Virus record (IMG/VR): IMGVR_UViG_3300048581_000043
DNA: 64,000 nt
Source of the DNA: an uncultured virus (IMG/VR IMGVR_UViG_3300048581_000043)
Taxonomy: Duplodnaviria > Heunggongvirae > Uroviricota > Caudoviricetes
Strand: one strand, 5' to 3'
Both the position numbers and the translations under genes were made by a program. This document shows positions 2,910 to 41,568 of this stretch, piece after piece; the first letter of the stretch is position 1, and every line of letters starts with the position of its first letter. Under the pieces are notes generated by a model, which was not told the origin of the DNA, did no database searches, and saw nothing but the letters and a program-made list of their open reading frames with translations.

Positions 2910-3208
2910 ATTGCGTTGCAATGTCCTGTCCCAGGAGAATGACTACCTGGTAATACTGGACTTGGCTTCTAATCTGAAAGAAAGGAAGCCTTCTATTAGC
3001 AGTGATGGATAAATAGCGCCTTTGCATGTTAAGCAAAAACTTTCCTATCACAGAGTTATGGTTCCTTCTACCTACAAGAGAGATACATAGCCCTCTTCGT
3101 CTGGAACCGACTCGCATAGCTAGCGCCTACCTGGCGCATGGGGCAATTTGACATCTGGTGTTAGTAGCTTTTTCAACTAACGCAGTAACTAACCAGACTG
3201 ATTGCCAT
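2910..3208 (-). ncRNA. candidate multi-hairpin structured RNA
   Basis: consecutive stems GGCAAU/AUUGCC, UCUGG/CCAGA, GUUAGU/ACUAAC, GCGCC/GGCGC, GGCUUC/GAAGCC, GUCC/GGAC, CCAGG/CCUGG; no convincing ORF. Confidence 0.35.
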
Positions 3209-3234
3209 TTTCTCCTTATGGCCTACTGAAATAC

Positions 3235-3504
3235 TTAAGAACCTGTTTTCTTATAATCAACAGGTAATTGATTAGACCATCCTAAATAAATTTTAGTTGG
3301 ATAAATTAAATATGCAGAAATGGGACTCAAAATACCAAAGTAATTATGAAGATAAAGATGTACTTCATTTTCATGATATGACGTTTCAACGAAACTAGCA
3401 TTTTTAAATTCTAAACAACGACCATTACTAAAAAAAATAAAAACAAAAGCCAACATCATGCAACGAAACGCTTTTTTGAGGATTTTCAGATCGGTTGGCT
3501 TCAT
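3235..3504 (-). CDS. hypothetical membrane/secreted protein, paralog of 1729-2001
   Basis: shared motif; likely start MKPTDLK, with an open in-frame upstream extension to 3642. Confidence 0.7.
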   Translation of the reverse strand: MKPTDLKILKKAFRCMMLAFVFIFFSNGRCLEFKNASFVETSYHENEVHLYLHNYFGILSPISAYLIYPTKIYLGWSNQLPVDYKKTGS

Positions 3505-3649
3505 TTCGCCCCCTTGGGTTTGGACATCACAAAACTCTTGAGCCTCATGGAGGGTATCAAAAGTCTTCTTTTTGGGTGTTTCTTCACTCCATCGAACAAT
3601 GAAAGATATACGAACGAAGCTTGTTTCTACGAAAGCCTCCAACCAGTTG

Positions 3650-3901: not shown

Positions 3902-4525
3902 TACTTTCACCTCTTGAAATGGTTGGTTTCTCGGAAGTCCAGTCTTCAGACATCGCCGCAGGACCCCAAATTGAACATCTAATTGAAGGTATCCATCTGG
4001 CCCATGAAGAGCAAACAATCCTCTTATCTATACAGAGTGAAGTTTTCAATCCTCCATTATTTGCAAAAGTATTTAGCTCTATATGCGATAGAGTAGTTTC
4101 AGTACATTATGTCAGGGCACTCAACCCCTCCTCTATTTGGGCGCATATAGAGCTAAATACTTTTGACTACAGTTTAATATGTCGAGTAATTTCAAAGATT
4201 TGCATAATTATACAAATAGCAGTATAACTTACAAAAAAACAAATAAACATAAACCAATCATTAGGTGAACGCATAATGATCCTTTCTAATTCCTATTTTG
4301 CAGCGGAAATCTATTTAACTCGTCTTACATTTATAACAGCCATCTCCTCAGTAACAAGGGTAGCAATCTTAAGCTTGGGCAAAGCCTCAAAGAGGTCCCA
4401 TAAAGCCTTATTAAAAGGTGAAGCTGTATTAGTTTCATTGATAACAGCAGTGTTATTATCCCAATTAAGCTCTAACAGGAACATGGTACCTCCTTATTGA
4501 ATCAAAAACGCGGCATAAAGTAAAT

Positions 4526-5462: not shown

Positions 5463-5698
5463 GAATCACCATCCTTTTGTTTCAAAATGCCCTCAAGAAC
5501 ATGTTCTCGATGCATATTCTTGATTCTGTAGATGACATCATCCAAAGCTTGTTTTTGCCAATCCTGCAAAGTCAATCCTCTGGGCAATGTTACTTTTACA
5601 GGATGAAGTTCTGAATGACGGATGGCTTCAAGAGATTTCTTGGTTGTATCCATTGACTCAATCAGATCGTTGAGTCGAGTGATTAATTCTTTGTTCAT
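5459..5698 (-). CDS. hypothetical protein
   Basis: AAAGGA RBS before MNKELITR. Confidence 0.65.
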   Translation of the reverse strand: MNKELITRLNDLIESMDTTKKSLEAIRHSELHPVKVTLPRGLTLQDWQKQALDDVIYRIKNMHREHVLEGILKQKDGDS

Positions 5699-6164
5699 GA
5701 CATGTCCTTTACAAAAAACAACGAATTGGCGGCGCAGGAGGGAGTAGACTGTACGTTTCCGACTACAAGTACTATATAAGATGATTAAACTCAGGAGTAA
5801 TACCCAGTTCAATCTTAACTATCTGTAATAGAGACCCATCACGAGTAACCCAGTGATCAATCTGTTGAGAAGCAACTCCGCCATAACAAGACAAAATAAC
5901 CCTATCTCGTAGAGCAGAAGCCTCAGAATAGGTAGCAAATCTTGGAGCTTTACACTCCTAAGGCTTCTGGTTTCCCTCGCCAATGGTCCATAGACCTACT
6001 AACCTACAAGTCTTTCGTAATTCGCTCCTTTCAAAAACAACATCTTTAATAGATGAAGTAACTCAAGAACAATCTAACAGCAGCTTCATAAGAATTAACA
6101 TCAGCTGGTTATCATAAGGCCTCCAGTTCAACAGCCTATGAACCTTTAACCTACATGGACTTTT

Positions 6165-6188
6165 AATCTACAAATCTACAAATCTACA
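6165..6188. repeat. (AATCTACA)x3 tandem repeat
   Basis: three perfect copies. Confidence 0.85.
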
Positions 6189-6624
6189 AATAACCTACTA
6201 CCCCTTTTAATATACTTCGTCCTATTATCTCACGTGAACAAATTCTGTTGTTACAAAATTCTCACGTTATTAATAGACTTAGTTATAAAAGAATAATATT
6301 ATAAGAAATTATATATAAAGAATAATATATTAAGTATTAAAGGATATAGTATTATAATAAACTATACCTTATCCAATCATACTCCAATATACGATATTCT
6401 ATTAAGGGAAGAATAAAGTAACAACATATTTACCATATGCCGTTTTCTTCCCCTCACCCTTTCTTTACTACCTCAAGCTTCTTACTACTCAACTTTTTGA
6501 TTTTAAATAACAAATTTAAATAAGACTAATCTTTTTACAATTGTATGCCCTTTTTAATTGAACACCAGTGGTTGTATACTTTTAAGTATTAAAAAAATAA
6601 ATTACTCAAAACTGCATTTTTCAC

Positions 6625-6652
6625 TTGACAAGCTGTTTTTTTATGCTAATAT
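6625..6652 (+). promoter_or_regulatory. sigma70-type promoter with extended -10
   Basis: TTGACA-16nt-TAATAT with TG upstream of the -10. Confidence 0.55.
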
Positions 6653-6843
6653 AAGAAAAGCAGATGAGTTATAAAAGCTAAACATCTTTAGCATATATCA
6701 CCTGCTCCGCAGTAGTTACTTATGTAGGTTTTGTACTAACAAAGATTATTATATTAATTGAAATTAAATTAATAACCTACATTACACAATGAACTTCAAA
6801 AGACTATTAAATAACCTCTCCAGAAATCCAATTAAATAATAGA

Positions 6844-6895
6844 ATCCTTGAGATGATATATCCTTTATGCTACAAGGACATACCACCCCAAGGAT
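6844..6895 (-). terminator. 22-bp hairpin closing the leftward operon
   Basis: AUCCUUGGGGUGGUAUGUCCUU pairs fully with AAGGAUAUAUCAUCUCAAGGAU (4 G.U pairs, valid only on the minus strand); about 50 nt after the stop at 6943. Confidence 0.7.
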
Positions 6896-6942
6896 CTTTC
6901 AACTCTTAGGCTAGTTTAACGTATAACTAACCTATGCTACAG

Positions 6943-8499
6943 TTACTTACAATCAACAATTTGACGCAATGCCTCCTGTTTAAGTGGATCCTTTTCAATG
7001 GACAATTGATACAGATAAATCTTACGCATGTCCACCTTACCAGGTTTGCCACCCAATAGATCATATTGGACCAACAAGAACTCAAAGCTCTTGTCAGGAA
7101 ACGTCTGCATTGCAAGAATCATGAGTTGCGTCTTATTGCGCTTGCATTTCTCATCACGAGAATACTCACACAACCCACGCATCAGATTCTCTTGAGGCCA
7201 ACCAGTACGCTTAGCCTTCTCCTCAGGCAAGTTCTCTGGTTGAAACCAGTTAGGATAGAAACTGGAACGCTTCATGAAGAACTCGAAACCAGGTCGTTCA
7301 AACAAACTCCTGGCAACCAGGTCCTTAAACATAGCAACCATAAGTTTGCCTTCATTGGCAAGCTCAATTTGCTTGTTAGCGTCAGTCTCAGCCATGAACT
7401 GATCACGCTTCTTAAAGATCTTCTGCTCTAACTCGATGATCTCATCGAATTCTTTCTGCAGATTGATCTTAATGTAACGTGCCTTCGCTCGCAATTCAGT
7501 CATGTGTTGAACATGATCTGTATAATCCAAGCGAGTTGCCTTCATCATCGCAACGTCAGCCAAGATAAGCTTGGTCTTCCAAGCTTGGAAATCCTCAGCT
7601 CGCACGATGCAATTATCAGAGGCAAAATCAGCTTCGCCCAGATCGATATCTTCTGTGCTAGTGCCAGTCCATGACACGTAGAATTCCTTTTTACCATCTT
7701 TGCCATCTTTCGGAATCCAACGATACACGTTGGCATAAACAGCAGCAGGACCACTGGGGTATGAATCCCTTTCTTGTTCTTGTTCATACTCGGTATGATC
7801 CAACCTTACCCACTCACGGCTCCATCCATAAACGGACTTGCCATGATACCGCTCTAAGATTGGGGTAATATACTTATCCCAAAACTTAGTCCAAATCACT
7901 TGCTCTGAGTCACCTTCAGCAATCAACTCAGTAAAGTCATGCAAACCATGTCGTACTTCATTCAACGATTTGGCCGCATCAACTCGTGAGTTGACCTTAG
8001 TTAAACTTCTGAAGTTAGAACTTAATACACGAAATGCCATGAGGGCTTTCTCATAAGGCGCCTCAATCAACTTCGTGTAATGCATGATCTCTTTAAAGAG
8101 CTTCATGCCCATATCCTCTTTCATCTCAGCAGGCTGAAGACTCACCTTCCTCTGAATCTTCCCGGTAATCTTCCAATTACCCAGCCCATCCTGAGACACA
8201 TTGCCTAATCCATTGCGGCGCAAATCCAAAAGCTTATAGGCTTTGCTTACCAGCCACTTTTGAGTAGTGTAAGAAGATGCTAACATTTCAGCAGGAGTCA
8301 ATCCCTCTAGAAATGAGAGATTCATTCCGTTAAACTCAGTCCATGCACGTTGCACATCTTCGAACCTGATCCCTTGCGTCTGAATCCGGTTCATAATGGC
8401 ATTATAGGTTGGCCCATGTAAACTGGGAAAACTATAACCCATCTCTTGCACTTCAATGCACGTCCGACCTTCGACTGGAAACTTCGAGGTACTAGCCAT
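6943..8499 (-). CDS. large hypothetical early protein (518 aa)
   Basis: long ORF with GGAGG RBS; no motif recognised. Confidence 0.85.
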   Translation of the reverse strand: MASTSKFPVEGRTCIEVQEMGYSFPSLHGPTYNAIMNRIQTQGIRFEDVQRAWTEFNGMNLSFLEGLTPAEMLASSYTTQKWLVSKAYKLLDLRRNGLGNVSQDGLGNWKITGKIQRKVSLQPAEMKEDMGMKLFKEIMHYTKLIEAPYEKALMAFRVLSSNFRSLTKVNSRVDAAKSLNEVRHGLHDFTELIAEGDSEQVIWTKFWDKYITPILERYHGKSVYGWSREWVRLDHTEYEQEQERDSYPSGPAAVYANVYRWIPKDGKDGKKEFYVSWTGTSTEDIDLGEADFASDNCIVRAEDFQAWKTKLILADVAMMKATRLDYTDHVQHMTELRAKARYIKINLQKEFDEIIELEQKIFKKRDQFMAETDANKQIELANEGKLMVAMFKDLVARSLFERPGFEFFMKRSSFYPNWFQPENLPEEKAKRTGWPQENLMRGLCEYSRDEKCKRNKTQLMILAMQTFPDKSFEFLLVQYDLLGGKPGKVDMRKIYLYQLSIEKDPLKQEALRQIVDCK

Positions 8500-8647
8500 T
8501 GTGGGTCCTCCAGGACCTTAATTTACCAATACTCAAGGCAGGTGGTGATCCCGCTTACAGTGTATCATGGCACTGTACAACCAGTAGTACTGTACTACTC
8601 CATGCCTACTATCAGTAGTAATAGTAGGACAAGGGTAGGACACTAAG

Positions 8648-8863
8648 CTACTTCATTTCTTCATCAATCGGACTGATGTCCGATAGATCATCCTCTTCTT
8701 CGCAGTCCTCCTCATCTGGAAAATCCGGGATCTGTGCTTCAACTACTATTGCCCCGCATTCAATGCATTGAACAATATCCCAACCATCCTTTTCTTGAAT
8801 GGTATGCATCGTATCTTTTCCACAACTACAAGCTCTTTCAACTAGCTCTTGTAAGTTACTCAT
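8648..8863 (-). CDS. Zn-ribbon protein with acidic tail
   Basis: CSCG...CIECG; D/E-rich C-terminus; AAGGAGG RBS. Confidence 0.75.
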   Translation of the reverse strand: MSNLQELVERACSCGKDTMHTIQEKDGWDIVQCIECGAIVVEAQIPDFPDEEDCEEEDDLSDISPIDEEMK

Positions 8864-8888
8864 GATGCCTCCTTAGTTAAGGATGTCA

Positions 8889-9110
8889 CTACCGAGTTTC
8901 TTTGATGTAGTTTAAAGCGAGCGGTTCAGGAATACCTGCATCCAAATATTCCCGAAGAGTAATGATTTCCAATCTACTAAACCTACTGTTCTCGTAGTAA
9001 TAGTTCCCTTCGACAATCTGAAAGGAACAAGTATCGCAGACCTTCTTGTCTCCAGACACAGTATCTAAACGACCTCCACAAACAGGGCAAATTTGCATAA
9101 CTACCTCCAT
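8889..9110 (-). CDS. Zn-ribbon protein
   Basis: CPVCGG...CDTC; true start may be the second Met, after GGAGG. Confidence 0.7.
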   Translation of the reverse strand: MEVVMQICPVCGGRLDTVSGDKKVCDTCSFQIVEGNYYYENSRFSRLEIITLREYLDAGIPEPLALNYIKETR

Positions 9111-9119
9111 AAAAAGATT

Positions 9120-9147
9120 AAGCCTTTTAATGTCTTGCTCAGGACAT
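9120..9147 (-). ncRNA. H-type pseudoknot motif, copy 2
   Basis: AUGUC-CUGAGCAA-GACAU-UAAAAG-GCUU, just after the stop of 9152-9400. Confidence 0.6.
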
Positions 9148-9151
9148 GAAA

Positions 9152-9400
9152 CTAGATCTTCCCCAACTTACCAAGTACCTCCATTACTCTGTACTTGGGG
9201 ATAGAACGAGAAGTCCTATCCAAAACCTTAACGCCTTTGACGATAAAACGAACAACCTCTTGCTTTGACGTATCATCAAAACACTCGCGAATAATCACCT
9301 TAGGGTTACAACTGCGGGCTAAACCTAAACCCACATTAAAGTAATCCCTTTCGGCAGCATCTAGTAATGATTGGTAATCAAACTCATCATGTAAAGCCAT
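9152..9400 (-). CDS. hypothetical early protein
   Basis: AAGGAG RBS. Confidence 0.75.
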   Translation of the reverse strand: MALHDEFDYQSLLDAAERDYFNVGLGLARSCNPKVIIRECFDDTSKQEVVRFIVKGVKVLDRTSRSIPKYRVMEVLGKLGKI

Positions 9401-9411
9401 GGTTCTCCTTT

Positions 9412-9696
9412 CTAAAACAGCGTTAACTGATTCAGAACCTTCTTTGGTTGTGCGGCTAACCTTTCCTTAGCCAACTCTTGCCCTGCTTTCACATAAGCAG
9501 CGGCATATGCCTGTCTCCAATTACCAGGCAAATCCCACTTCTTGCCTAAAGCAGAAGTGTAAACATCTATGGGAGCTGTTGCAACTAACGTCTTTTCAGT
9601 TTGTTTCACTGTAAAGACATAATTCGCCTTCCGGAAAACAAAGAAATGTTTCCCTTCTTTAAATCCTCTGCTAACCAGTCTTACTTGTTCTTCCAT
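9412..9696 (-). CDS. hypothetical early protein with C-terminal QLTLF
   Basis: GGAGG RBS; ends with a beta-clamp-binding-like pentapeptide. Confidence 0.75.
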   Translation of the reverse strand: MEEQVRLVSRGFKEGKHFFVFRKANYVFTVKQTEKTLVATAPIDVYTSALGKKWDLPGNWRQAYAAAYVKAGQELAKERLAAQPKKVLNQLTLF

Positions 9697-9821
9697 GGTA
9701 TTTGCCCTCCCATGTCATAAGAAGGCTTAATAATCTTTGCCTTCTTTGGTTTCAGCAGATTCCACAATTCCACCAAGCTCCAACCTACTAGCATCACTCC
9801 TAAGAAAATCATGCCTGCCAT
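9681..9821 (-). CDS. small single-TM protein (not in ORF track)
   Basis: CTGGAGGT RBS; MAGMIFLGVMLVGWSLVELWNLLKPKKAK... Confidence 0.55.
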   Translation of the reverse strand: MAGMIFLGVMLVGWSLVELWNLLKPKKAKIIKPSYDMGGQIPWKNK

Positions 9822-9895
9822 AACTACCTCCAGTTGTAGTGTTTGAAAACGGCGCAAAGTGAAGATCTAAAAGCTTGTCAATCTCCTTTTCTAAA

Positions 9896-10111
9896 CTAGA
9901 CATGTACCCCTCCCGGTAATGCCTCCAATACATCACCAGTAGTAGGACTAACCAAAGGTTCGGTCAAACAGTTGATCGATAACTCCATAATCTTGGCAGT
10001 AGGCACTCTATGCCACCCCAAGTATCCCTTCAGGAAACTGACCACTTCAGGTTGTGTTACTTCCTTAGTCCCCTTCTTCGGCCCCATCTGTTTAGTAATG
10101 AAAAATCGCAT
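9896..10111 (-). CDS. hypothetical early protein
   Basis: CTGGAGGT RBS. Confidence 0.7.
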   Translation of the reverse strand: MRFFITKQMGPKKGTKEVTQPEVVSFLKGYLGWHRVPTAKIMELSINCLTEPLVSPTTGDVLEALPGGVHV

Positions 10112-10201
10112 AGTACTACCTCCAGTAGTGTATTAGTAGGGATATAGGCCCTACCCCTGTGGCCCTCTGTCTCATAACCAGAAGGCCCTTAGGGTAATGC
10201 C

Positions 10202-10444
10202 TTACACCAACTTAATCACAACGCCTGACTTACCCTTACACTCCTTGGATGCCTCCTTTACCAGATAGGCAACTCCCATGCCTACTGCAGCTGCACCCAT
10301 GGCCTTGAATAGGCCTGTCCCACATACGAGTGCTGCCGTCCCAAGGACTCCCCCAGTAAGGAGCTCTGCCTTGTGCTCTGTAGCAAGTGCCTTAGCCTTC
10401 TCTGCATAAGCGCTGCTCTTCGCCTTCAGTTCTTCGTTAGTCAT
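10202..10444 (-). CDS. glycine-zipper membrane protein
   Basis: start MTNEELK after CTGGAGGT RBS; GGVLGTAALVCGTGLFKAMGAAAVG. Confidence 0.75.
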   Translation of the reverse strand: MTNEELKAKSSAYAEKAKALATEHKAELLTGGVLGTAALVCGTGLFKAMGAAAVGMGVAYLVKEASKECKGKSGVVIKLV

Positions 10445-10461
10445 ATAAACACCTCCAGTTA

Positions 10462-10520
10462 GTCTCTGTTTCGACCTACAACTAGGTCTCATCAGCTAGT
10501 GTTACCACTAGGACAGAGGC
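10462..10520 (-). ncRNA. type III hammerhead ribozyme
   Basis: CUCUGUC/CUAGUG-GUAA-CACUAG-CUGAUGA-GACCUA-GUUG-UAGGUC-GAAA-CAGAG; complete catalytic core and three perfect stems. Confidence 0.93.
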
Positions 10521-10543
10521 AGTTTAATGTCGTGCCCAGGACA
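10517..10543 (-). ncRNA. H-type pseudoknot motif, copy 1
   Basis: UGUC-CUGGGCAC-GACA-UUAAAC-UGCCU, just after the stop of 10550-10813. Confidence 0.6.
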
Positions 10544-10549
10544 GGTAAA

Positions 10550-10813
10550 TTAGCAGAAAGGAATGTAGATGTGATCTACCTTCTCACATCCTCCGTTCTC
10601 CAAGGTCTTCTTCGTAACAACGTCAGCCACAGCAGCAGCCACGATGCCTGTTAACACGGCTGCACCCAGACACTTCAACAACCCTGCCCCACACACAGCA
10701 GCAACGGCCCCACCAACCACAGCCACGCTACCACCAACAGCAGCCTGGTTCACCAAACGACACGCGAAGACTTGCTCTTCAGTCAACGTTGAATAAACTT
10801 GAGTCTTAGCCAT
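10550..10813 (-). CDS. glycine-zipper membrane protein, paralog of 10202-10444
   Basis: start MAKTQV after AAAGGA; GGAVAAVCGAGLLKCLGAAVLTG. Confidence 0.75.
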   Translation of the reverse strand: MAKTQVYSTLTEEQVFACRLVNQAAVGGSVAVVGGAVAAVCGAGLLKCLGAAVLTGIVAAAVADVVTKKTLENGGCEKVDHIYIPFC

Positions 10814-11006
10814 GATAAACACTTCCTTTGAGAGATTTTGTAGAGGGTAGGGGCTCGGAACTACAAGCCAGTAACCATCCATTACCTCCCTCCCATCGCT
10901 AGAATTTTTATTTACTTTTTTTAGAGCTTACTTTTTTCAATATCAACTTTTTTACATCAAGTCTAAAATTTTTTATGTCTAAATTTCCCTATATAGAATT
11001 TTTTGC

Positions 11007-11035
11007 TTGACAATTAATTTATAGTAAGTTAATAT
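11007..11035 (+). promoter_or_regulatory. sigma70-type promoter
   Basis: TTGACA-17nt-TAATAT at the head of the rightward gene block. Confidence 0.7.
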
Positions 11036-11089
11036 ATATTTACTGAAGAGATTCAAAAGTTGCAAATAATATTTTCAAAAGGATCAATC

Positions 11090-11341
11090 ATGGGAGTACA
11101 TGCTGCACTTTTGGACACTAATGGTAAGCCTTTCTACGTACCAGATCATGTCAAAATTGAGTATTTGGAAGGATATAGTTATATCTTATTGCATTCACCA
11201 GATTTACCTAGCGTACCTGAAGGAACTTCTCTTCCGATTATTTCGATAGAAGAAGCTGGTAAACTTAAAAATGTTAAGTGTGATTGTAAATATTGTTTAC
11301 CAAATACTCCATCGTGCATCAAGCCGGAGGAAGATAAGTGA
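11090..11341 (+). CDS. hypothetical protein
   Basis: AAAGGA RBS before MGVHAA. Confidence 0.65.
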   Translation: MGVHAALLDTNGKPFYVPDHVKIEYLEGYSYILLHSPDLPSVPEGTSLPIISIEEAGKLKNVKCDCKYCLPNTPSCIKPEEDK

Positions 11342-11640
11342 AAACTAAATTTACTACTGAAGAAATTATAGATTGTTCAGCTATTTTTGCCGCTGATCTT
11401 CTAATAGCTTCTAGAGAACTTTTAAAACTAAGTTCAGCTCTAGTTAATCATCGGGAACGTCTAGTCGGTAATAAGAAAATTAATATATTTCTTTCTGATA
11501 GCAAAAAGCATTTAGTTAATGTAGAGAAAGTTGCTATAGATTTCTGGAAGAAACAAGAATACAGTTTTAAAGAAGCTTTAGCTCGTAATGAACAATGGTT
11601 AAAAGATAATCCTCCTAAAAAATCGAGGTCTAAAAAATGA
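11338..11640 (+). CDS. hypothetical protein
   Basis: GGAGG RBS; GTGA overlap with the upstream stop. Confidence 0.65.
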   Translation: MKTKFTTEEIIDCSAIFAADLLIASRELLKLSSALVNHRERLVGNKKINIFLSDSKKHLVNVEKVAIDFWKKQEYSFKEALARNEQWLKDNPPKKSRSKK

Positions 11641-11833
11641 TTTATACTCAAATAGAAACAGCTACTGGAAAACGAAATAAATTCGAGATAGACCAGATTC
11701 ATAATTATTGCGATTTGTATGAATTTATTAATGACCTTAACTGGCGGCAATGTAAATTTATTAGAGAAAAAGAAGGATTTAAATATCCTAAGTATATTTA
11801 TATTGCTTAATATTTTGTGCTAGGAGGAAAAAG

Positions 11834-12334
11834 ATGGCTAAAGTTATAACGTGGGTTTATATTCTTGCTTATAATAATTCTCTGAATGAATATGATAACG
11901 CTCCTGTCTATGCATTTTTAAATAAAGAAGATGCTGATTCTAAAAAAGCCGAGGAAGAAAAGAAAGATAAAGTTAGATATTGGTATATTTATAGACTCCC
12001 TTTAATTAAACCAACAGAAACAAAAGAAAAACCTACTGTTCTAGAAAACTCATTATTAAGAGCAACAGATCTAGAACTTAAAGATGATTTTGAATTTTAC
12101 CGGAAAGATATTATAAGTCTCTCGGAATTGATAGATCCACTTACAATGAACCTATGGGGAAGATTCTGGAATCCTTGTGGGGACCAACCATACTATAGAT
12201 TAAGATTAAAAAGTTATAGATTTATAAATACTGAAGTTATATGGTATCCGAATATGCCTAAGAATGGTTGGTGCCAACAGCCTGAGGGTCTTCCAATTTC
12301 TGCGGAACAAGCTAAAGCATTAGGACTAGTATAA
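11834..12334 (+). CDS. hypothetical protein
   Basis: AGGAGG RBS; 166 aa. Confidence 0.75.
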   Translation: MAKVITWVYILAYNNSLNEYDNAPVYAFLNKEDADSKKAEEEKKDKVRYWYIYRLPLIKPTETKEKPTVLENSLLRATDLELKDDFEFYRKDIISLSELIDPLTMNLWGRFWNPCGDQPYYRLRLKSYRFINTEVIWYPNMPKNGWCQQPEGLPISAEQAKALGLV

Positions 12335-12345
12335 GGAAAGAAAAG

Positions 12346-12558
12346 ATGGAAACTTGCGGAAATGATAGTCTTAAGAGATATAATCCTCTTCTCTGTTCAA
12401 AATGTGGAACTATTTCCGAAGATATAATTATAAACTATGTTCAACAGATTTCGACTGCTTACACTAGTGAACTCTTCGCTTGTAAATGTTCTCATTGTGG
12501 ATTTAGTTGGATAGAGAATATTTCCGCAGAAGGAAGGATGAAGAGTAATGAAGAATAA
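12346..12558 (+). CDS. Zn-ribbon protein
   Basis: CSKCG...CSHCGFSW. Confidence 0.65.
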   Translation: METCGNDSLKRYNPLLCSKCGTISEDIIINYVQQISTAYTSELFACKCSHCGFSWIENISAEGRMKSNEE

Positions 12559-12700
12559 AAAATTCAAAGTGATACGCAGAGTATCTATTACGTTTCACAT
12601 CATAGCACCGGAAGGTAATGTCTTTGAATATTTCTTTGATAAAAAGGAAGCAGATGCTGCGTGCAAATGGTTAAATATAAAGCAGAGGGAAAAAACTTAA
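12548..12700 (+). CDS. small hypothetical protein, paralog of 12701-12880 (not in track)
   Basis: manual translation ...IIAPEGNVFEYFFDKKEADAACKWLN... Confidence 0.65.
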   Translation: MKNKKFKVIRRVSITFHIIAPEGNVFEYFFDKKEADAACKWLNIKQREKT

Positions 12701-12880
12701 ATGAAAAACCCATTTAAGAAAACTGAGAAAGTCGAACCAAAGCATCTGTATCGAGTCCAGACAACCTATTGCATTATCGAACCCAATGGGGATGCATTCG
12801 ATTACTATTTTGAACAAAGAGATGCAGATAGAATGTGTGAAAAATTAAATGAACTACTTAGAAAGAAGAATGTAAAATGA
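12701..12880 (+). CDS. small hypothetical protein, paralog of 12548-12700 (not in track)
   Basis: manual translation ...IIEPNGDAFDYYFEQRDADRMCEKLN... Confidence 0.65.
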   Translation: MKNPFKKTEKVEPKHLYRVQTTYCIIEPNGDAFDYYFEQRDADRMCEKLNELLRKKNVK

Positions 12881-13278
12881 CTTTTCAAGAAGGATCTATT
12901 CTAAGAAAGGCCTATTCCAAAGACCAAGGAAGTAAAATCTCAGTTAGAGATAGTTCTACTAATGAACTTTTACTTGCGGAAACTACGATTAAGGTTATTA
13001 AGTTTCAATTCGATTTCAATAAACATAAAGAAACTTCTAAAACAGGTGTTTTAGTTTTTGAATGTCCAATTAACACGTTCGTTTTTGCACATCCCTTTCG
13101 AATTATTATAGTTGCTCCAAATGAAATAGGCGAAAACTTACAAATGACAATAGAAGATTGTCAGTTTAAGATAAACACACTAGACTGTTCACCCGAAAAA
13201 ATTCATTTTATTTTTAGAGAAACTACAGGATGGCAATATCCCAAAAGAAATATTGACATTCTTTCATTAGACGTGTAA
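12877..13278 (+). CDS. hypothetical protein
   Basis: ATGA overlap; 133 aa. Confidence 0.65.
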   Translation: MTFQEGSILRKAYSKDQGSKISVRDSSTNELLLAETTIKVIKFQFDFNKHKETSKTGVLVFECPINTFVFAHPFRIIIVAPNEIGENLQMTIEDCQFKINTLDCSPEKIHFIFRETTGWQYPKRNIDILSLDV

Positions 13279-13281
13279 TAT
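13253..13281 (+). promoter_or_regulatory. sigma70-type promoter
   Basis: TTGACA-17nt-TAATAT. Confidence 0.7.
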
Positions 13282-13311
13282 GTAGTTAGTAAATTATCTG
13301 GAGGATAATTC

Positions 13312-13644
13312 ATGTCAGCAAAACTTTCAAATAAGAAAATCAAAAATCTTAAGGTCTTATCGCGAGAGATTACACTTAATATTCCTGAAAATCTCTTAAA
13401 AGATTTCCTACATAATAGTTGCGGAAATATTAAAGATGACTTTTTCACTGTGTGGAATCTACATTCAATGACTGCCTTAAGAGTTATCTTTAAGGATAAG
13501 AATTGCAAATTTCCATTGTTAAAATCCAAAGAAAGTAAAGATATAAGGAAATTCGTAGATAAAATAAATTCTAAAGAGTTTTTACAGAAGCTTTATCCTA
13601 TTCCTAAAAATTATAAAATTAAACTTCGCGTGGAGTTCGAATAA
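13312..13644 (+). CDS. basic hypothetical protein
   Basis: GGAGG RBS. Confidence 0.7.
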   Translation: MSAKLSNKKIKNLKVLSREITLNIPENLLKDFLHNSCGNIKDDFFTVWNLHSMTALRVIFKDKNCKFPLLKSKESKDIRKFVDKINSKEFLQKLYPIPKNYKIKLRVEFE

Positions 13645-18403: not shown

Positions 18404-18739
18404 ATGTTTAATATTCCTCCTAATATTAAACTGCAACAAGATCCGGCTACGCCAGAATGGCATCCCGAACTCACTACTGAATTCCAAATCAAAGGAGACT
18501 TTGCTTTAGTTCCTAAATCTTTCCTGGTTGATATCAAAAAAGATCTTCAAAGGATTAAGACCTCTATTAGTCTAACGGAATGTCAAGCTATTGCCGAGGC
18601 CGTTAATAGTAGATTATCACTTAAAGCTAATAGAAAACAAAATCCAGTTCAACAACAACAAATGGAAGCTGTAGCAAAAGATTTATCTATGCAGAAACTC
18701 GTTAGCGATTTAAGAACTGATCCAAGATATAATCGATGA
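18404..18739 (+). CDS. hypothetical protein upstream of the tubulin
   Basis: stop overlaps the ATG at 18736. Confidence 0.6.
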   Translation: MFNIPPNIKLQQDPATPEWHPELTTEFQIKGDFALVPKSFLVDIKKDLQRIKTSISLTECQAIAEAVNSRLSLKANRKQNPVQQQQMEAVAKDLSMQKLVSDLRTDPRYNR

Positions 18740-20283
18740 TATATTGTCAGAAGTTAGGCACAGGTCAGTTAACAGGTCCTTGGGGTACGATCTTAACATT
18801 ACCACAGTGCCCTGCTCCTGGTTGCAAGTTTCCAAAATGTCCTAATATTGTAGATGGTCCTTATGAATCCGATATAGATATAAGTACGTTAAAAGAAATA
18901 TTTATACACTTTATTGAAACAGGACAACTAAATGTATTGACATTTGAGAAAGACAAGAGTAGTATACCAATGACTTTAGAGAGAAAGTCAGAAGTTAAAA
19001 CAGCGCAGTCGGACGCTACGCTAAATAAATTGGAGGAAGTACCAATGCTTATTGATAATTCCGTTGCAACCACCCCAGAAACAACTATTCAAGATCAAAA
19101 TCCAACAGTACCAACTAAATCCTTAGACATGGGTTTTATTGGAGTAGGTGGAGCGGGATGTAAGATTGCTGATTCGTTTGCCAGTTATGGTTATGATTCA
19201 ATGGTAATTAATACCACGGATCGAGACTATGCTCATTTAACTAATGTTCCTCAAGATGAGAATTCACGTATTCAACTGTATGCCTCTGCTGGTGGCGCTG
19301 GCAAAGATCCAGATGTTGGAATTTCTGCTGTCAACCAATATGCAAATGATATTCTAAAAAAGATTCAGATTAAGATGGGTAACAAAGAGTTCGTCTTTGT
19401 TTGTTTTGGTTTGGGGGGTGGTACTGGTTCGATTGGAGGAACTCTTGTAGCGCAAATTGCTGCTATGACTAAAGTTCCTGTGGGAGTTATTGTTACTTTA
19501 CCACGCTCTAATGAAGGAACTGATGAAAAAGTTAACTGTCTCAAAGGACTTCAAGAAATTGCTAATTGCAAAGGTATCAATGCTATCGTAGTAGTAGACA
19601 ACCAAAAGATTTCAAATAATTTAGGTGGCGTAACAGATAAGAACTTTTGGAGTACGGCTAATAGAGAAATTGTTAATCTTTTCCATCGCTTTAATACTTT
19701 GTCATCAATGCCTTCCAATACAACCTTTGATCCAGAAGATTATAAAAAATGTTTGCGTACTCCAGGTTTCTTAGTACTAGGTATTACACGTATTCCTCAA
19801 AAGACATTTATCGAATTAGTTAATAATGACTTGATTAATAATTTGCATCACTCTATTCAGGATGGATTTTTAGCAGATGGTTTTGATACTAAGAGTTCAA
19901 TTAGAGTAGCTGGCCTAATTACTAAACCGGCAGGATTTGATTATGGTCATGCTTTTGAAGAACAATTATTTGACTTCTTAAAAGGTCAAATGGGGGCAGG
20001 ATCTTTAAATAGAGGCATCTACTCTCTTGAAAGTCCTTGTGCTCCAGAGGTAGAAATTCTTACCATGTTCTCTGGTATGAAATTGCCGGAAGCACGAGTT
20101 AAGCAGTTATTCGACGAAACAAAGAATGAGGCTTCTCAAATGGCTGCTAAAGTCAATGAACGCCTTACTCAGAACGTAGATCTAGGTTTGGGAGATATCT
20201 CTGATCTTGGAAAGATTAGTGGTACTCCAACCACACAAGTAAAGTCTAATCTAAATACTAACATGCTAAAAAGACGGAGCTAA
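18736..20283 (+). CDS. tubulin/FtsZ-family GTPase (TubZ/PhuZ-like)
   Basis: IGVGGAGCKIAD, INT, GAGKDP, GLGGGTGS signature, VVDN, FDPEDY; strong internal GGAGG start at 19045. Confidence 0.92.
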   Translation: MIYCQKLGTGQLTGPWGTILTLPQCPAPGCKFPKCPNIVDGPYESDIDISTLKEIFIHFIETGQLNVLTFEKDKSSIPMTLERKSEVKTAQSDATLNKLEEVPMLIDNSVATTPETTIQDQNPTVPTKSLDMGFIGVGGAGCKIADSFASYGYDSMVINTTDRDYAHLTNVPQDENSRIQLYASAGGAGKDPDVGISAVNQYANDILKKIQIKMGNKEFVFVCFGLGGGTGSIGGTLVAQIAAMTKVPVGVIVTLPRSNEGTDEKVNCLKGLQEIANCKGINAIVVVDNQKISNNLGGVTDKNFWSTANREIVNLFHRFNTLSSMPSNTTFDPEDYKKCLRTPGFLVLGITRIPQKTFIELVNNDLINNLHHSIQDGFLADGFDTKSSIRVAGLITKPAGFDYGHAFEEQLFDFLKGQMGAGSLNRGIYSLESPCAPEVEILTMFSGMKLPEARVKQLFDETKNEASQMAAKVNERLTQNVDLGLGDISDLGKISGTPTTQVKSNLNTNMLKRRS

Positions 20284-20311
20284 GCCCTTCTCTCCCTCTC
20301 TAGCCGTCCAG

Positions 20312-20376
20312 TGCAGTTGGTGTTAGTCTTCGACCTCCAGCGAAGATTAGCTGGCTTAAATGCCAAACCAACTGCA
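20312..20376 (+). ncRNA. candidate three-way-junction sRNA with anti-SD loop
   Basis: UGCAGUUGGU/ACCAACUGCA; GUUAGUCUUCG/CGAAGAUUAGC with loop ACCUCCAG; UGGC/GCCA; G.U pairs favour the + strand. Confidence 0.6.
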
Positions 20377-20419
20377 TCCTCATTTAACGAAGTTTGTATA
20401 GAAAAGTGTTAAAATAAAT

Positions 20420-20653
20420 ATGGCACTTCAAGATGTCTACATAGCTTTAGCTAAACTTCATTTCAAACTAGATAAATGTAATAAGGGAGATCACTTCTAC
20501 CAGCAATTTCGTTATTTATTACAAACTAATGGCGAAAAGTGCTTATATCTTCCGATGATAACTAAAAATCTTCCCATCGATTTTATTAAAGAAGAACTAG
20601 AAGAGTTGCTAAAGCAGTATGAGGCTCTTAAAAATGACCACCCCCCAGTCTGA
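20420..20653 (+). CDS. hypothetical protein
   Basis: 77-aa ORF. Confidence 0.55.
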   Translation: MALQDVYIALAKLHFKLDKCNKGDHFYQQFRYLLQTNGEKCLYLPMITKNLPIDFIKEELEELLKQYEALKNDHPPV

Positions 20654-24002: not shown

Positions 24003-24384
24003 ACAAGGGCCTGCATTAGAGCTCCCAGAACCTTTAAATAAAGATTTCTTTAGGAGTTCATGGGAAAGAAATATTGCAAGACTATTATACTTTCTTAATA
24101 TTTCTTATAGATATGAAGTGCATAGATTCTGGTTTGATGGTACGCATTCCTATTTGCCAGACTTTAGATTAGACTCTGCTAATCCTTGGAATGTCAAATG
24201 GTTAGAAGTTAAGGGAAAATGGAACAAGGGTGATAAAACGCGTCTGCGTTTATTTGCTCACTTTGAACCCAAAGAGACTTTTCATGTTCTCTTAAAAGAT
24301 GAATACTTAGTTTTAGAGAAACAATACAAAGATAAAATTCCTCACTGGGAATGTAGAATTAGAAAAGCCAGAGGGAAAAAATAA
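23986..24384 (+). CDS. PD-(D/E)XK nuclease
   Basis: FRSSWE...YE...YLPDF...LEVKG. Confidence 0.85.
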   Translation: MKTNFKQGPALELPEPLNKDFFRSSWERNIARLLYFLNISYRYEVHRFWFDGTHSYLPDFRLDSANPWNVKWLEVKGKWNKGDKTRLRLFAHFEPKETFHVLLKDEYLVLEKQYKDKIPHWECRIRKARGKK

Positions 24385-30159: not shown

Positions 30160-32291
30160 TGTTACTGCCTAACGAAACTCCTTTTAAGGCTCAAGAACTT
30201 CGCACATATGTTAATCAAGTCATTAACGATACCCTTGATCCAAACAATTTTCAAATTGTTAAAAAAGCCCTTCAATCTAATGCTCCAACAACAAGGACCG
30301 CTCAACAAAGTGCAAGTACCGCAGTCCAAGATTATGATCTTAAAGTTATAGATAGGTTCTCAGATTCTGAACCTTTAGCTTTTCAATCATTTGCAAAGAT
30401 TGCAGAAAAAGTCTTAAATGGCGGATATGTCTATGCTTCAAAAGATCAAGATGCCTTACTGTATGTAAAACAGCGTCTGCGTGATTTCTCTCTAATTAGT
30501 GGTCTACCAACTCGTATTTGGATCGAACAAATAGTATTCGATCTAATTAAATATTCAAATTGTTTCATTTACAAGTATCGTGATCCAGAAGCTTCTAATG
30601 GTTCCCCTATCAATATAGATGGTAAACCCGTAGATCCTATTGCTAGCCTAATGAAATTAGATGCTACTTCTGTTACTCCAATTACAGATGACAAAGGTAA
30701 TGTGAAGAGTTATGAAATCGGTCCCACTGATACAAACGGTGGGGGCGGGGGCGGAACTAAAAAGAAGAAAGTTCCTCCCGAGGACATGTTCCATATCTAT
30801 GCTTATCGTAATAGTAGAAACAATTTAGGCACACCTTTCCTTTGGCCAGTAATGGATGATATACGTGTTCTTCGTAAAATGGAAGAAAACGTGGAAATGC
30901 TTGTCCATAAACATTTATTCCCTCTCTATCATTATATAGTTGGTACTACAGACTATCCAGCAGAACCTGAAGAAATTGAAAAAGTCCACTATGACTTGGA
31001 GCGTCTTCCTACAGAAGGTTCCTTAGTAACTCCAGAACGCCATACAATCAAGGTGGTTGGTGCCGAAGGAGAAGCTATAGATGCTTCAAAATATCTCAAT
31101 TACTTCCAAAGTCGTGTCTTACTGGGTCTAGGTATTGGCTCAGTCTCCTTCGGAGTTGGTGGAGAAGGAGCTTCAAAATCAACAGCAGAAACTATTAGTC
31201 GCTCATTGATTGAAAAAGCCAAATATTTCCAATCAGTAATTAAAGCCTTCGTAGAAGAGCAAATAATTAGTGAGATACTCAAAGAGGGCGGATACGAACA
31301 GTATGATGTTCAAAATGAAGTTGATGTATTCCTTAACTTCAACGAAATTGACATTGATACACAGATCAAGAAAGAAAACCATTATGGGTTAGTATTCGAT
31401 AATCAAGGTATTACTTATGAAGAATATAGAATGGCTCTTGGTAGAGATGCTATTCCTGAAGGTGACGAACAAGAACAACGTTTGCAGTTTAACTTATTCG
31501 GTCCAGTAGTAACAACTGATCTTGAAATTCAAGCTGATGCAGCTGCTGCTGGAGCCAAAGCAGAGATCAAATCCAAAGATAGACCATCCAACCAACATGG
31601 ACAAAATCTCTCTCCTAAACGCGCCCGAGATATGAAGATCACTGATCACAAGGCTCACGAATTAGATTCTACCAAAGAAATGTCTATGCGTGTGCGATCA
31701 TTATATGATCAGGCTCGTTCAGATGTAATTAGCGGAATCAAATCCGCCTCTTCATTAATAGATGCCAAGGACAAGGTTAACTTCACTTTAGGAATTACTA
31801 AATCAGCTATGGTATCTGCCTTAAATTCTTTTGTTAATGATGGTATTAACAAAGGTTACTCTTCCGCTTATCCTGGGAAGATTCAAGACTCATTGGCAGT
31901 CAAAGAATCAAACGCAGAATTCGAGCATTTTATTGACAAAACAATTACAAATGTTAAAAATAATGTTATAAATATATTAGACAATTCTAGTATAGATGCG
32001 ACAGATAAGCCTCTTCGTGCTTCAGCTATTTTTGACTTGCATAATCAATACATAAAAGATGCAAGTGAGACGATCATGACGAGGGCTTACAACTACGGTA
32101 AGGCACTTGCCTTTCGTAATAATGGCGAAACAATTGCCGCAATACAACCTAATGCAAGCGCATGTGATGCTTGCAAATCTAAAGCGGGAATATTAAATCT
32201 GAATCAATTAACTTTCGATTCAGTACCGCCTCATCACAAAGATTGTAATTGTGAAGTTGATATCTACAAGGTAGGACACAGCAATGGATAA
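30159..32291 (+). CDS. portal protein with C-terminal MuF/gp7-like domain
   Basis: synteny; DLIKYSNCF, GTPFLWPV-x-DD-x-R-x-LR, ITYEEYR-x-LG; C-terminal CDAC...PPHH-x-CNC. Confidence 0.85.
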   Translation: MLLPNETPFKAQELRTYVNQVINDTLDPNNFQIVKKALQSNAPTTRTAQQSASTAVQDYDLKVIDRFSDSEPLAFQSFAKIAEKVLNGGYVYASKDQDALLYVKQRLRDFSLISGLPTRIWIEQIVFDLIKYSNCFIYKYRDPEASNGSPINIDGKPVDPIASLMKLDATSVTPITDDKGNVKSYEIGPTDTNGGGGGGTKKKKVPPEDMFHIYAYRNSRNNLGTPFLWPVMDDIRVLRKMEENVEMLVHKHLFPLYHYIVGTTDYPAEPEEIEKVHYDLERLPTEGSLVTPERHTIKVVGAEGEAIDASKYLNYFQSRVLLGLGIGSVSFGVGGEGASKSTAETISRSLIEKAKYFQSVIKAFVEEQIISEILKEGGYEQYDVQNEVDVFLNFNEIDIDTQIKKENHYGLVFDNQGITYEEYRMALGRDAIPEGDEQEQRLQFNLFGPVVTTDLEIQADAAAAGAKAEIKSKDRPSNQHGQNLSPKRARDMKITDHKAHELDSTKEMSMRVRSLYDQARSDVISGIKSASSLIDAKDKVNFTLGITKSAMVSALNSFVNDGINKGYSSAYPGKIQDSLAVKESNAEFEHFIDKTITNVKNNVINILDNSSIDATDKPLRASAIFDLHNQYIKDASETIMTRAYNYGKALAFRNNGETIAAIQPNASACDACKSKAGILNLNQLTFDSVPPHHKDCNCEVDIYKVGHSNG

Positions 32292-33915
32292 AAAGAACAT
32301 TGTCCGAATCAGAGATTCATTCTCTATCCTGGATAGTATTGCTGATATCGCTCCTCGGATCAAAGATCATCTTCCTAATATGGTCCAAGATTCAGCTACC
32401 TCATCTAATAAGGTTTCTCTATTAAGTGAGATAGCCTCTACTTTCTCTGATGTAGTAAATGGTAATAATGCCTACTATCCTGAAAAATATATTAAGGATT
32501 CCGTTCTTTCTTGGACCACCCCCCACCAAAAACCAATCCTTGTTAACCACGATCCCGCAAGCAAACCTTTGGGGCGCAATGTTGGAGCTATTTATAAGCC
32601 TACCAACTTGATGCTTGCCAAGATTCAGAATGCTAAAGCATCCAGTTTAGATTCTTATGGATCCGGTCATGTTCGTAATCTAGTTAATATTCTAGATGCT
32701 GAAGCTGTTGAAATGGTATTAGATGGTCGTTTTCAAACAGTATCCGTTGGTGGTGACTCTGATAATATGATTTGCTCAATATGTGGACATGATTGGGCAA
32801 GCGGATGTAAATGTTCTCATAAATTTGGCGACGAATATGAAATGAAAGACGGCTCAATCCAATCTGCATATTGGGAAGCTGGTCCTTTGCATTGGGCTGA
32901 ACTTTCTTTCGTAAATATTCCTGCCACTGACTATGCCATGATTGTCACTAAAGACATCCATGGTGGAGATTCCGAAAAGGAACTCCTCAAGATTTATAAC
33001 TATAGCGAGGTCAATAAGAATAGATCTCCTGTAGTTGACAGCTTACGGAAACGTTATTTCACTGCATATGCTATCAATGATTCGCAAGATGGCATTATGT
33101 TAAATGAAAGAACAACCGTTGATGATCTTTATCGTGTTTATGGGAAAAGATCTGTAGTTGTAGTAGATACACAATTAAATTCAAAGGAGTCCAACTTGGC
33201 TGATTCAAACGTACCGGCCAATCCCGAGCCAGCCGCAGCTGCTCCTGCAGTTTCTCCAGTAGTTAATCCGGAGGCTGTAGTAGTAACCACTGCGACCCCA
33301 ACTCCAGCTTTTGTTGCTACGGCAACACCAGTTGTGCCGGAAACTACCGTAACACCTGCTCCTATTACAGTACCTCCGGTGGTTGTAGTAACGCCCGAGG
33401 CTGTCGTAAAGGTCGAAGCCCCTGTAGTTGCACCCAAAGATTCCAGTGATGAACTGAAAATCAAGGATGCAGAGGTTGTAAGCCTTAAGACTAAAGTTAC
33501 AACTCTTGAAGGTCAATTGAAGTCTGTACAAGATGAAAAAAATCAACTTGTTACGCAATTGACAGATTTTCAGGTTAAAATTAAACAAGAGAAGGTTAAT
33601 CAACTTTTAGACCTTAAGAAAAACCTGAATCTTGAAGTTCTTGATGAAAAAGAACGCGAGTTAAAAGTTAAAGACTTGATGGAAAGATCCAGTGATTCAA
33701 TCGAAGATCAACTCAAGGATCTTGGTCAAGTTGTAATAACGAAAATTAAAGATGTAAAAGCTTCCGGGACGAAGCCTTACATTAAAGATTCAGTGGACCC
33801 GGCCACAATTGAAGATGCTGAAGCAACTATCGAAGAGCGCGTTGATGGCATGTCAGTTGAAGATATGGCATTTGCTCTCTTTCATGGCGGAATCAATCCA
33901 CGTATTAGACAGTAA
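32284..33915 (+). CDS. prohead protease-scaffold fusion
   Basis: PILVNHD...PLGR, TVSVG, ELSFVNIPA; Pro/Val/Thr linker then coiled coil. Confidence 0.85.
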   Translation: MDKKNIVRIRDSFSILDSIADIAPRIKDHLPNMVQDSATSSNKVSLLSEIASTFSDVVNGNNAYYPEKYIKDSVLSWTTPHQKPILVNHDPASKPLGRNVGAIYKPTNLMLAKIQNAKASSLDSYGSGHVRNLVNILDAEAVEMVLDGRFQTVSVGGDSDNMICSICGHDWASGCKCSHKFGDEYEMKDGSIQSAYWEAGPLHWAELSFVNIPATDYAMIVTKDIHGGDSEKELLKIYNYSEVNKNRSPVVDSLRKRYFTAYAINDSQDGIMLNERTTVDDLYRVYGKRSVVVVDTQLNSKESNLADSNVPANPEPAAAAPAVSPVVNPEAVVVTTATPTPAFVATATPVVPETTVTPAPITVPPVVVVTPEAVVKVEAPVVAPKDSSDELKIKDAEVVSLKTKVTTLEGQLKSVQDEKNQLVTQLTDFQVKIKQEKVNQLLDLKKNLNLEVLDEKERELKVKDLMERSSDSIEDQLKDLGQVVITKIKDVKASGTKPYIKDSVDPATIEDAEATIEERVDGMSVEDMAFALFHGGINPRIRQ

Positions 33916-33945
33916 GCAGTAAAACTTTAGGGAGGAAAATAAGAC

Positions 33946-41474: not shown

Positions 41475-41568
41475 TCGCAATAAGTTGTCTTGATGGCTAG
41501 TAGGGAGGGGTTGCATATGCTAGATGCTTCCCCTCCCGGCTGGCATAATCCCTCCTTAAAGAAGAAAA

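Follow-up and report, generated by a model that had tools for sequence, protein, structure and literature searches.

The window analysed here is a stretch of 64,000 nucleotides from an uncultured virus of the Caudoviricetes (IMG/VR IMGVR_UViG_3300048581_000043), corresponding to bases 62,001–126,000 of one 131,143-base contig, and positions below are window positions unless a contig position is named. The system in question is a block of leftward genes at 6844–10900, the RNA elements between these genes, and a candidate RNA polymerase encoded at 49204. In an initial annotation, the block had been described as a self-contained pre-early operon with RNA-structured gaps, read by an injected virion polymerase, processed by a ribozyme, and possibly silenced later by a small RNA from position 20312. 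The block is co-directional and highly translatable and lies where the two arms of the genome diverge, and its first internal gap carries a complete hammerhead directly behind a compact pseudoknot, a cassette that was recovered at further viral and metagenomic loci.

Genes and promoters of the leftward block

The block comprises nine non-overlapping open reading frames (ORFs) on the minus strand and one overlapping 58-aa ORF, and forms the opening 4 kb of the leftward arm. Genes left of 10,900 are nearly all leftward and those right of 11,000 all rightward, and the abrupt start that had been noted near 10900 coincides with this divergence point. Closest to it, ORF1 (10550–10813, 87 aa) is Gly/Ala-rich with a hydropathy of 2.18 and is likely a membrane protein, and ORF2 (10202–10444, 80 aa), also hydrophobic, is a weak paralogue of ORF1 (11/18 identical, pairwise E 8e-5). 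These are followed by ORF3 (9896–10111, 71 aa), ORF4 (9727–9903, 58 aa), which overlaps ORF5 in another frame and has its own Shine-Dalgarno (SD) sequence, ORF5 (9681–9821, 46 aa), with a hydrophobic N-terminal helix, the basic ORF6 (9412–9696, 94 aa), and ORF7 (9152–9400, 82 aa). ORF8 (8889–9098, 69 aa) is zinc-ribbon-like, with two CxxC motifs, and falls below Pfam cut-offs, and ORF9 (8648–8863, 71 aa) has CxC/CxxC motifs and an acidic tail (net charge −18). The last gene, ORF10 (6943–8499, 518 aa), has three relatives at 56–64% identity, and copies of it are located on one 5,081-base contig and on contigs of 86 and 131 kb. Family searches returned no family above cut-off for any ORF of the block. 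ORF10 was considered as a second, gp64-like polymerase, and this was ruled out, as it has no DxDxD motif and no fold or family match.

All ten ORFs are led by SD sequences, with duplexes of −9.3 to −13.3 kcal/mol, in agreement with the strong ribosome-binding sites described earlier for about ten leftward genes. With mechanical gene calls and the best-SD start chosen in every gene set, duplexes of −9 kcal/mol or below were obtained for 9/9 called genes of the block; the corresponding share is 22% among 144 further calls on the left arm and, in two right-arm sets, 19% of 32 and 29% of 28; the figure for major head and tail genes is 73%. The block is also richer in G+C (GC) than its flanks, as had been stated, with a coding GC of 0.445 and a GC at third codon positions (GC3) of 0.456 vs 0.34–0.39 and 0.24–0.26 elsewhere, and the three highest-GC3 4-kb windows in the 131-kb genome all overlap it. 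No related loci for the block were found among viral or metagenome contigs.

A promoter scan returned the plus-strand promoters already reported at 11007, 13253, and 16039, and a fourth, previously unmentioned, at 6625. The sigma70-type promoter at 11007–11035 (+) is divergent and belongs to the right arm. That at 6625–6652 (+), also sigma70-type, has the same boxes (TTGACA/TAATAT) as those at 11007 and 13253 and faces the 3' end of the block, where it is a possible antisense silencer; it could yield an RNA of ~200 nt or antisense read-through (6625–6930). The earlier statement that no minus-strand promoter lies upstream of the block was upheld in so far as none passes the scan between 11700 and 10820, but a sigma70/sigmaA near-match, TTGATA-17-TAAAAA (10918–10946, minus strand), agrees with the consensus at 9/12 positions, with the last T absent, and is embedded in phased A-tracts.

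Hammerhead, pseudoknot, and other intergenic structures

A type III hammerhead was identified at 10464–10518 (minus strand), between ORF1 and ORF2, with a CUGAUGA and GAAA core, a GUC triplet at 10514–10512, and a predicted cut after C10512. It has the conserved CUGANGA and GAAA segments, the G10.1-C11.1 pair, and an NUH cut site, and in the minimum-energy fold stems I and II are 6 bp long and looped and stem III is open. It is the only complete hammerhead in the genome (one of three core matches has stems I and III), and its stability was equalled by 4/200 shuffles. Neither the window, searched against Rfam at gathering score, nor 5500–11500, searched at E 5, contains a match, the hammerhead included; because the motif is short, this miss weighs less than the consensus test. 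The ribozyme that the initial annotation had placed in the block is indeed canonical, with a full core and three stems, and on the strength of this complete consensus it is very likely to cleave itself after C10512, which would free gene 1 from genes 2–10.

Overlapping the hammerhead by 2 nt lies copy 1 of a 27-nt H-type pseudoknot (10517–10543, minus strand; stem 1 (S1) 10543–10540/10531–10528, stem 2 (S2) 10537–10533/10521–10517), 10 nt from where the ORF1 stop codon begins. Copy 2 (9120–9147, minus strand) lies 9 nt from where the ORF7 stop codon begins and has no ribozyme behind it, and these two copies, both within the block, are the only ones in 131 kb. The loop is 8 nt long (CUGRGCAN), and S2 has 4–5 bp. 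As far as these two copies go, the spacer is followed by the hammerhead in copy 1 and by no stable hairpin in copy 2.

A degenerate pattern of the pseudoknot was found at 132 viral loci (~750 estimated) and at 123 genome loci from many phyla (~410 estimated). The outer S1 pair, left free by the pattern, is Watson-Crick in 88/130 distinct copies and G-U in 22/130 (at most 64 in shuffles). For one S2 pair the Watson-Crick count is 124/130 (at most 96 in shuffles), and the base following the pattern pairs with a fixed G in 128/130, with the qualification that these shuffles ignore kinship and that related phages contribute many of the 130 copies. Upstream of the pseudoknot, a sense ORF ends in 104/123 contexts, vs 45 on the other strand, and one starts downstream in 87/123, vs 26 on the other strand; the distance from stop codon to pseudoknot clusters at 8–11 nt. 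Of the 132 motif loci, 20 were compared with Rfam, without a match to the pseudoknot, and among the papers listed in the literature searches none treats it in phages, although the RAGATH lists (Weinberg 2015) may include the motif; six files from the supplement of PMC10690425 contain no motif string, and the motif may be in others. In several phages, the pseudoknot lies a few bases ahead of transfer RNA (tRNA) genes (loci L007, L023, L111, and L129).

When the pseudoknot followed by CUGANGA was searched for, 17 viral loci were returned, 8 with a true hammerhead (6 of type III, with 3 distinct sequences, and 2 judged by eye to be of type I). A stricter pattern for metagenomes, which forced a GUC 3–12 nt behind the pseudoknot, returned 10 loci, 9 of them with type III hammerheads. 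Both searches combined gave 10 distinct type III cassettes, some related, and in the nine that were called by script the cut site lies 6–10 nt past the 25-nt pattern. The reverse order, with the hammerhead before the pseudoknot, was found at one locus, with a non-canonical core. The combination of pseudoknot and hammerhead was not found in print in the literature searched; motif catalogues may list it. A cassette of ~80 nt with fixed geometry in unrelated phages makes one role of hammerheads testable, namely cleavage of the message combined with protection of the part upstream of the cut. Two pseudoknot-hammerhead cassettes (loci L161 and L165) bracket a single 57-aa ORF.

Among the remaining gaps, a long imperfect hairpin at 10147–10202 (minus strand; z −3.35, 0/200 shuffles as stable) is a candidate RNase III-type site or stabiliser, and two end hairpins at 6846–6930 (minus strand), the second of ~23 bp with a T-rich tail (z −9.0, 0/200 shuffles), are the predicted terminator. 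Values of z ≤ −2 were obtained for 3/4 internal gaps of the block vs 13/54 gaps elsewhere. The initial annotation had assigned a structure to most of the larger gaps, and this stands for the hammerhead, the pseudoknot, the 10147–10202 hairpin, and the end hairpins; the hairpin cluster at 8500–8647 (minus strand) is borderline (z −1.76, 10/200 shuffles; z −2.4 in the gap comparison), and the G-rich leader at 10820–10900 (minus strand) is not significant (z −1.21, 24/200 shuffles as stable). The leader was also inspected by eye as a twister, hepatitis delta virus-like, or pistol ribozyme and rejected, since the required stems are absent and the fold is not significant.

Polymerase 49204 and the genome setting

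The gene at 49204–52914 (+) lies in the tape-measure slot and encodes a free protein of 1,236 aa with the motifs R787-x-P789 and D831-x-D833-x-D835. A search of 1.84 billion representatives returned 10 relatives; R-x-P and DxDxD are invariant in 11/11 aligned sequences (20–77% identity), and no other protein with both motifs is encoded among the genome ORFs of at least 250 aa. Sequence searches of PDB, Pfam, PHROGs, cultured phages, and Atlas gave nothing usable. A single-sequence fold was uninformative (predicted local distance difference test (pLDDT) 37.8), and the model built from the alignment reached a pLDDT of 74.6 and a predicted template modelling score (pTM) of 0.62. With this model, every one of the 48 rows shown by Foldseek is an RNA polymerase (best E 0.002), and the 13 best rows of VIA-align are polymerases, headed by QDE-1 (Z 9.9, root-mean-square deviation 7.5, 407 aligned), with P74-26 gp62 at Z 8.7 and P23-45 gp96 lower, at Z 7.5. 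Residues 24–325 match beta chains and residues 370–860 match beta' chains (Z 8–10), in one chain. Judged by these motifs and this model, 49204 is very probably a single-chain two-barrel RNA polymerase.

The right arm encodes TubZ, terminase, portal, capsid, sheath, two tube genes, three very large genes, and baseplate. Among 14 matching records, the nearest terminase is that of Moorella phage MTATph1 (32%), followed by that of Bacillus phage 0305phi8-36 (28%), and the gene order of the tail region agrees with both. The gene for 49204 occupies the gp146 slot, between the gene at 44261, a homologue of 0305phi8-36 gp145 (E 5e-75) and of MTATph1 CDS0026, and a gp147-family gene; from this place between virion genes, 49204 is probably packaged and ejected. 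Sequence of the phage is present in peat and bioreactor sequencing runs. The tubZ and polymerase probes retrieved the same phage only.

Several further features were recorded. At 18404–20283, TubZ and an upstream 111-aa gene, possibly TubR, suggest plasmid-like partition or a carrier state. In an AT-rich non-coding stretch at 6000–6600, TTTGTAGA occurs three times in tandem and a CACGTGAG-like site twice; this stretch is a possible origin, centromere-like site, or genome end. At 4064–4165, the arms of a perfect 24-bp inverted repeat are separated by 54 nt, and an 89-nt repeat (78% identity) occurs at 1880–1968 and 3386–3474, within two small genes that are probably paralogues. The left arm carries nicotinamide adenine dinucleotide (NAD) salvage genes at contig positions 24,129–29,949 (NAMPT-like, NAD synthetase, and adenylyltransferase-like) and, away from these, three tRNAs.

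Interpretation and comparison with known systems

The reading that we prefer, to which a probability of roughly 40% is assigned as a whole, is that the block is a first-read early unit that is split by a ribozyme, shielded by pseudoknots, and possibly read by an injected polymerase. In a myophage genome of the 0305phi8-36-like kind, the block would be the unit at one end that is read first, and it would likely be transcribed as one message; its position suggests that it is probably expressed first or early, and, more tentatively, that it could lie inside a terminal repeat of ~5 kb. The two-barrel polymerase 49204 would be injected and would then read the block, a step given slightly less than even odds. 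Of the virion polymerase proposed in the initial annotation, the enzyme itself and its probable packaging are supported, and its reading of the block is a possibility. After the cut, the pseudoknot would lie 5 nt from the new 3' end of the gene 1 fragment, where it would block 3'-to-5' exonucleases in place of a terminator hairpin, and the lone copy 2 and the hairpins would mark further boundaries. The 5-nt tail that cleavage would leave behind the pseudoknot favours 3'-end protection over a 5'-to-3' barrier, and a shielding role of this kind, with the lone copy and hairpins as further boundaries, is rated at even odds. If an RNA shuts the block off, antisense transcription from the 6625 promoter would be a better candidate than 20312.

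Read evidence consisted of assembled contigs, the cover of which cannot rank expression. In two RNA runs, all near-identical contigs on 5500–13500 lie inside 6776–10500 (7/7 and 8/8); the lack of RNA contigs over 10500–13500 is by itself no finding. RNA contigs end at 10486 and 10500, before the predicted cut, and a DNA contig continues through, which is a weak hint. In one DNA run, depth was 7.6–8.3 over 6398–11372 vs 2.2–6.7 in the flanks, with GC bias possible and a second run too sparse. Such contigs give weak hints of expression, of cleavage, and of a ~5-kb repeat. Separately, one RNA run had a mean contig depth of 160 over 3000–3633 vs <6 elsewhere, which may reflect an abundant small RNA or foreign sequence.

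A number of findings weigh against the reading that we prefer. No Foldseek row for 49204 reaches E 0.001, and MTATph1 CDS0027 (30512–34441), in the same tail slot, has an exonuclease domain of RNase T type; relatives thus differ in the enzyme that this slot carries, and the slot may hold interchangeable ejected enzymes. The 49204 family was not detected in MTATph1 or 0305phi8-36 by a search that had no positive control, and another polymerase may lie at 50–130 kb of MTATph1, outside the fetched parts; taken at face value, a promoter-less block of this kind therefore needs no such enzyme. No repeated promoter motif was seen by eye before the block genes, where only one A-tract unit was counted, and this repeated unit has 79 occurrences in the genome and hence is not specific to the block; P23-45 places a virion-polymerase promoter before most pre-early genes (PMC10770324, in part). 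The near-match TTGATA-17-TAAAAA gives a candidate RNA start near 10911, ~10 nt ahead of the leader. RNA contigs also cover 15–17.5 kb and the tubZ region, which fits a carrier state too. A hammerhead was present within 200 nt of only ~1/133 pseudoknots sampled, most pseudoknots lie 20–30 nt ahead of a start codon, a position that would suit 5' protection just as well, and the block of 0305phi8-36 has a GC below that of its flank and contains no pseudoknot or hammerhead. Finally, a host-takeover role for the block genes is suggested by their position, and none of them belongs to a known takeover family or has a known takeover function.

The same block could instead be read by host RNA polymerase from TTGATA-17-TAAAAA, or with the help of a phage activator, and 49204 would then serve other genes or DNA entry. 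This site is positioned to start RNA directly ahead of the leader, and its −10 box is without the last T, which is nearly invariant in such boxes. The first genes of SPO1 and T5 are read by the host enzyme, and four good host-type promoters nearby indicate that this phage uses host polymerase; strong first-gene promoters are usually near-consensus, which counts against this alternative. Relatives retain the block without the 49204 family, but a packaged polymerase needs a target, and the block lies at the presumed entering end, and reading by the host enzyme is on the whole considered rather unlikely. A carrier-state (plasmid-prophage) module, for example one for superinfection exclusion by small membrane proteins that is steadily expressed in lysogens, would suit the three hydrophobic block ORFs, the host-like GC3, which fits steady expression, and the RNA contigs over the block, 15–17.5 kb, and tubZ, and the phage encodes TubZ and a helix-turn-helix regulator behind a 12/12 promoter. 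Such a module is nevertheless improbable, as the position of the block is that of the terminal repeat in 0305phi8-36, a phage described as lytic, no relative of this TubZ was found in GTDB genome contigs, and contig cover cannot rank expression.

For the pseudoknot, the alternative is a coremin-like role, in which it would stop ribosomes or 5'-to-3' decay (RNase J), would protect or insulate the downstream gene and, beside the hammerhead, would only keep ribosomes off the ribozyme. The coremin motif of plant viruses, an exonuclease-resistant RNA (xrRNA), shares a GUC..GAC-GUUAAA core with it (PMC10520033, PMC10321173, both in part), in that xrRNA-C and xrRNA-WCC have a GUC/GAC stem, then GUUAAA, and a loop-to-spacer pseudoknot, and the canonical S2 is common to xrRNA-WCC and the pseudoknot here; the downstream sense ORFs and the peak in stop-to-motif distance given above fit this role as well. 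Coremin loops are 4–7 nt long (YGAD or YGNNAD) as against 8 nt here, and the loop rule failed; a second hairpin is needed there, is not required here, and is absent behind copy 2; and the hosts of the motif are plant and other RNA viruses there, as against DNA phages and bacteria here, with no mention of phages or bacteria in the available main text of either paper. Since only 5–10 nt separate pseudoknot and cut in cassettes of type III, hardly any RNA would be left there for a 5'-to-3' block to protect, and this alternative is regarded as doubtful.

That injected polymerase, ribozyme, and silencing from 20312 form one integrated, obligate system is extremely improbable. The structured element at 20284–20420 (+), directly behind the tubZ stop codon, folds well (z −5.2), and its C/U-rich 5' arm can pair with G/A-rich leaders, with a site in ORF6 that ranks 6th of 6,555 windows. 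Pairing with the leader of the block amounts to −23.4 kcal/mol, outside the top 40 of these windows, the strongest site (−36.0 kcal/mol) lies at a distance of 14 kb, paired runs with the block reach 15 nt at most vs 12–20 nt in five controls, and the element has no promoter at 10/12. The silencing proposed earlier was abandoned, no specific pairing to the leader or a translation start of the block having been found, and the element very probably plays no part. Its best partner, at contig ~58,635–58,660 (minus strand), 3,340 before the window (−36 kcal/mol), resembles an inverted copy of the 20284 motif, of which a second, weaker one is present at 41,490. The MTATph1 block, which is without a detectable 49204-type polymerase, likewise means that the parts are not obligately coupled.

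In its relatives, the cut-and-shielded early unit that we prefer has partial counterparts. 0305phi8-36 has the same tail-gene order, the same two-arm plan, and a leftward block at the divergence, where its leftward genes make up an annotated 6,479-bp terminal repeat, and its authors argue that the takeover end enters first, citing SPO1 (PMC2147016, in part). Its polymerase gp99 differs in being a separate early gene, and no homology was shown between its block proteins and those here (518-aa protein vs gp102, probability 0.2%). MTATph1 (OR602862) has a leftward block at 168–171 kb with raised GC (0.504 vs 0.441 for the fetched 46 kb), both of that genome's 2 pseudoknot copies, an 11/12 sigmaA site on the antisense strand, no sense-strand sigmaA site at 9/12, and a large last gene, as here; it differs in having no hammerhead in the fetched parts and a slot protein with an exonuclease domain and without DxDxD. 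This comparison supports a conserved first block and speaks against tight coupling to 49204: MTATph1 has the block and pseudoknots without a detectable 49204 family, and 0305phi8-36 has a leftward block with no pseudoknot and no detectable 49204 family.

In P23-45, a tape-measure-fused polymerase transcribes the genes that adjoin the end of the genome, starting at AT-rich promoters that recur (PMC10770324, in part), and the likeness extends to a single-chain two-barrel polymerase tied to the tape-measure position and to small leftward genes at the arm divergence near a genome end, without host promoters. P23-45 is a siphophage with its polymerase gp96 fused in a 5,002-aa protein, and each of its pre-early genes, among them a second polymerase, has its own AT-rich promoter and terminator, in contrast to the SD-led genes in one apparent operon, with ribozyme and pseudoknots and no second polymerase, found here. 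The pseudoknot motif is absent from P23-45, and the 26-nt termination motif of that phage was rejected as not being the same element. Type III hammerheads of phages and prophages also have the full catalytic consensus and flank single genes, and they cut polycistronic RNA in vitro, with cutting to gene-length pieces proposed (PMC3088659, in part); for the role of phage intergenic hammerheads, more work has been called for (PMC6765202, in part). The cassette here differs from those of PMC3088659 in that a separate 27-nt pseudoknot abuts the 5' side, rather than a stem I-II contact.

Each part of the system thus has a counterpart, in the pre-early genes of P23-45, the takeover regions of SPO1 and 0305phi8-36, or the phage hammerheads, and the claim that it matches no described system was given up. 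The block resembles the pre-early or takeover units of phages such as P23-45, SPO1, or 0305phi8-36; a 0305phi8-36-like myophage that unites a new single-chain polymerase in an interchangeable tail slot, one AT-rich promoter, a terminal-repeat operon, and a 'cut and cap' cassette is, as a full conjunction, unlikely. What is new is, first, a polymerase family in this slot, with which injected polymerases would come to include those of contractile-tail phages in this lineage, and, second, the pseudoknot-hammerhead cassette, which, if 'cut and cap' is true, would be the first natural, protein-free shield of a ribozyme-made 3' end that consists of RNA only.

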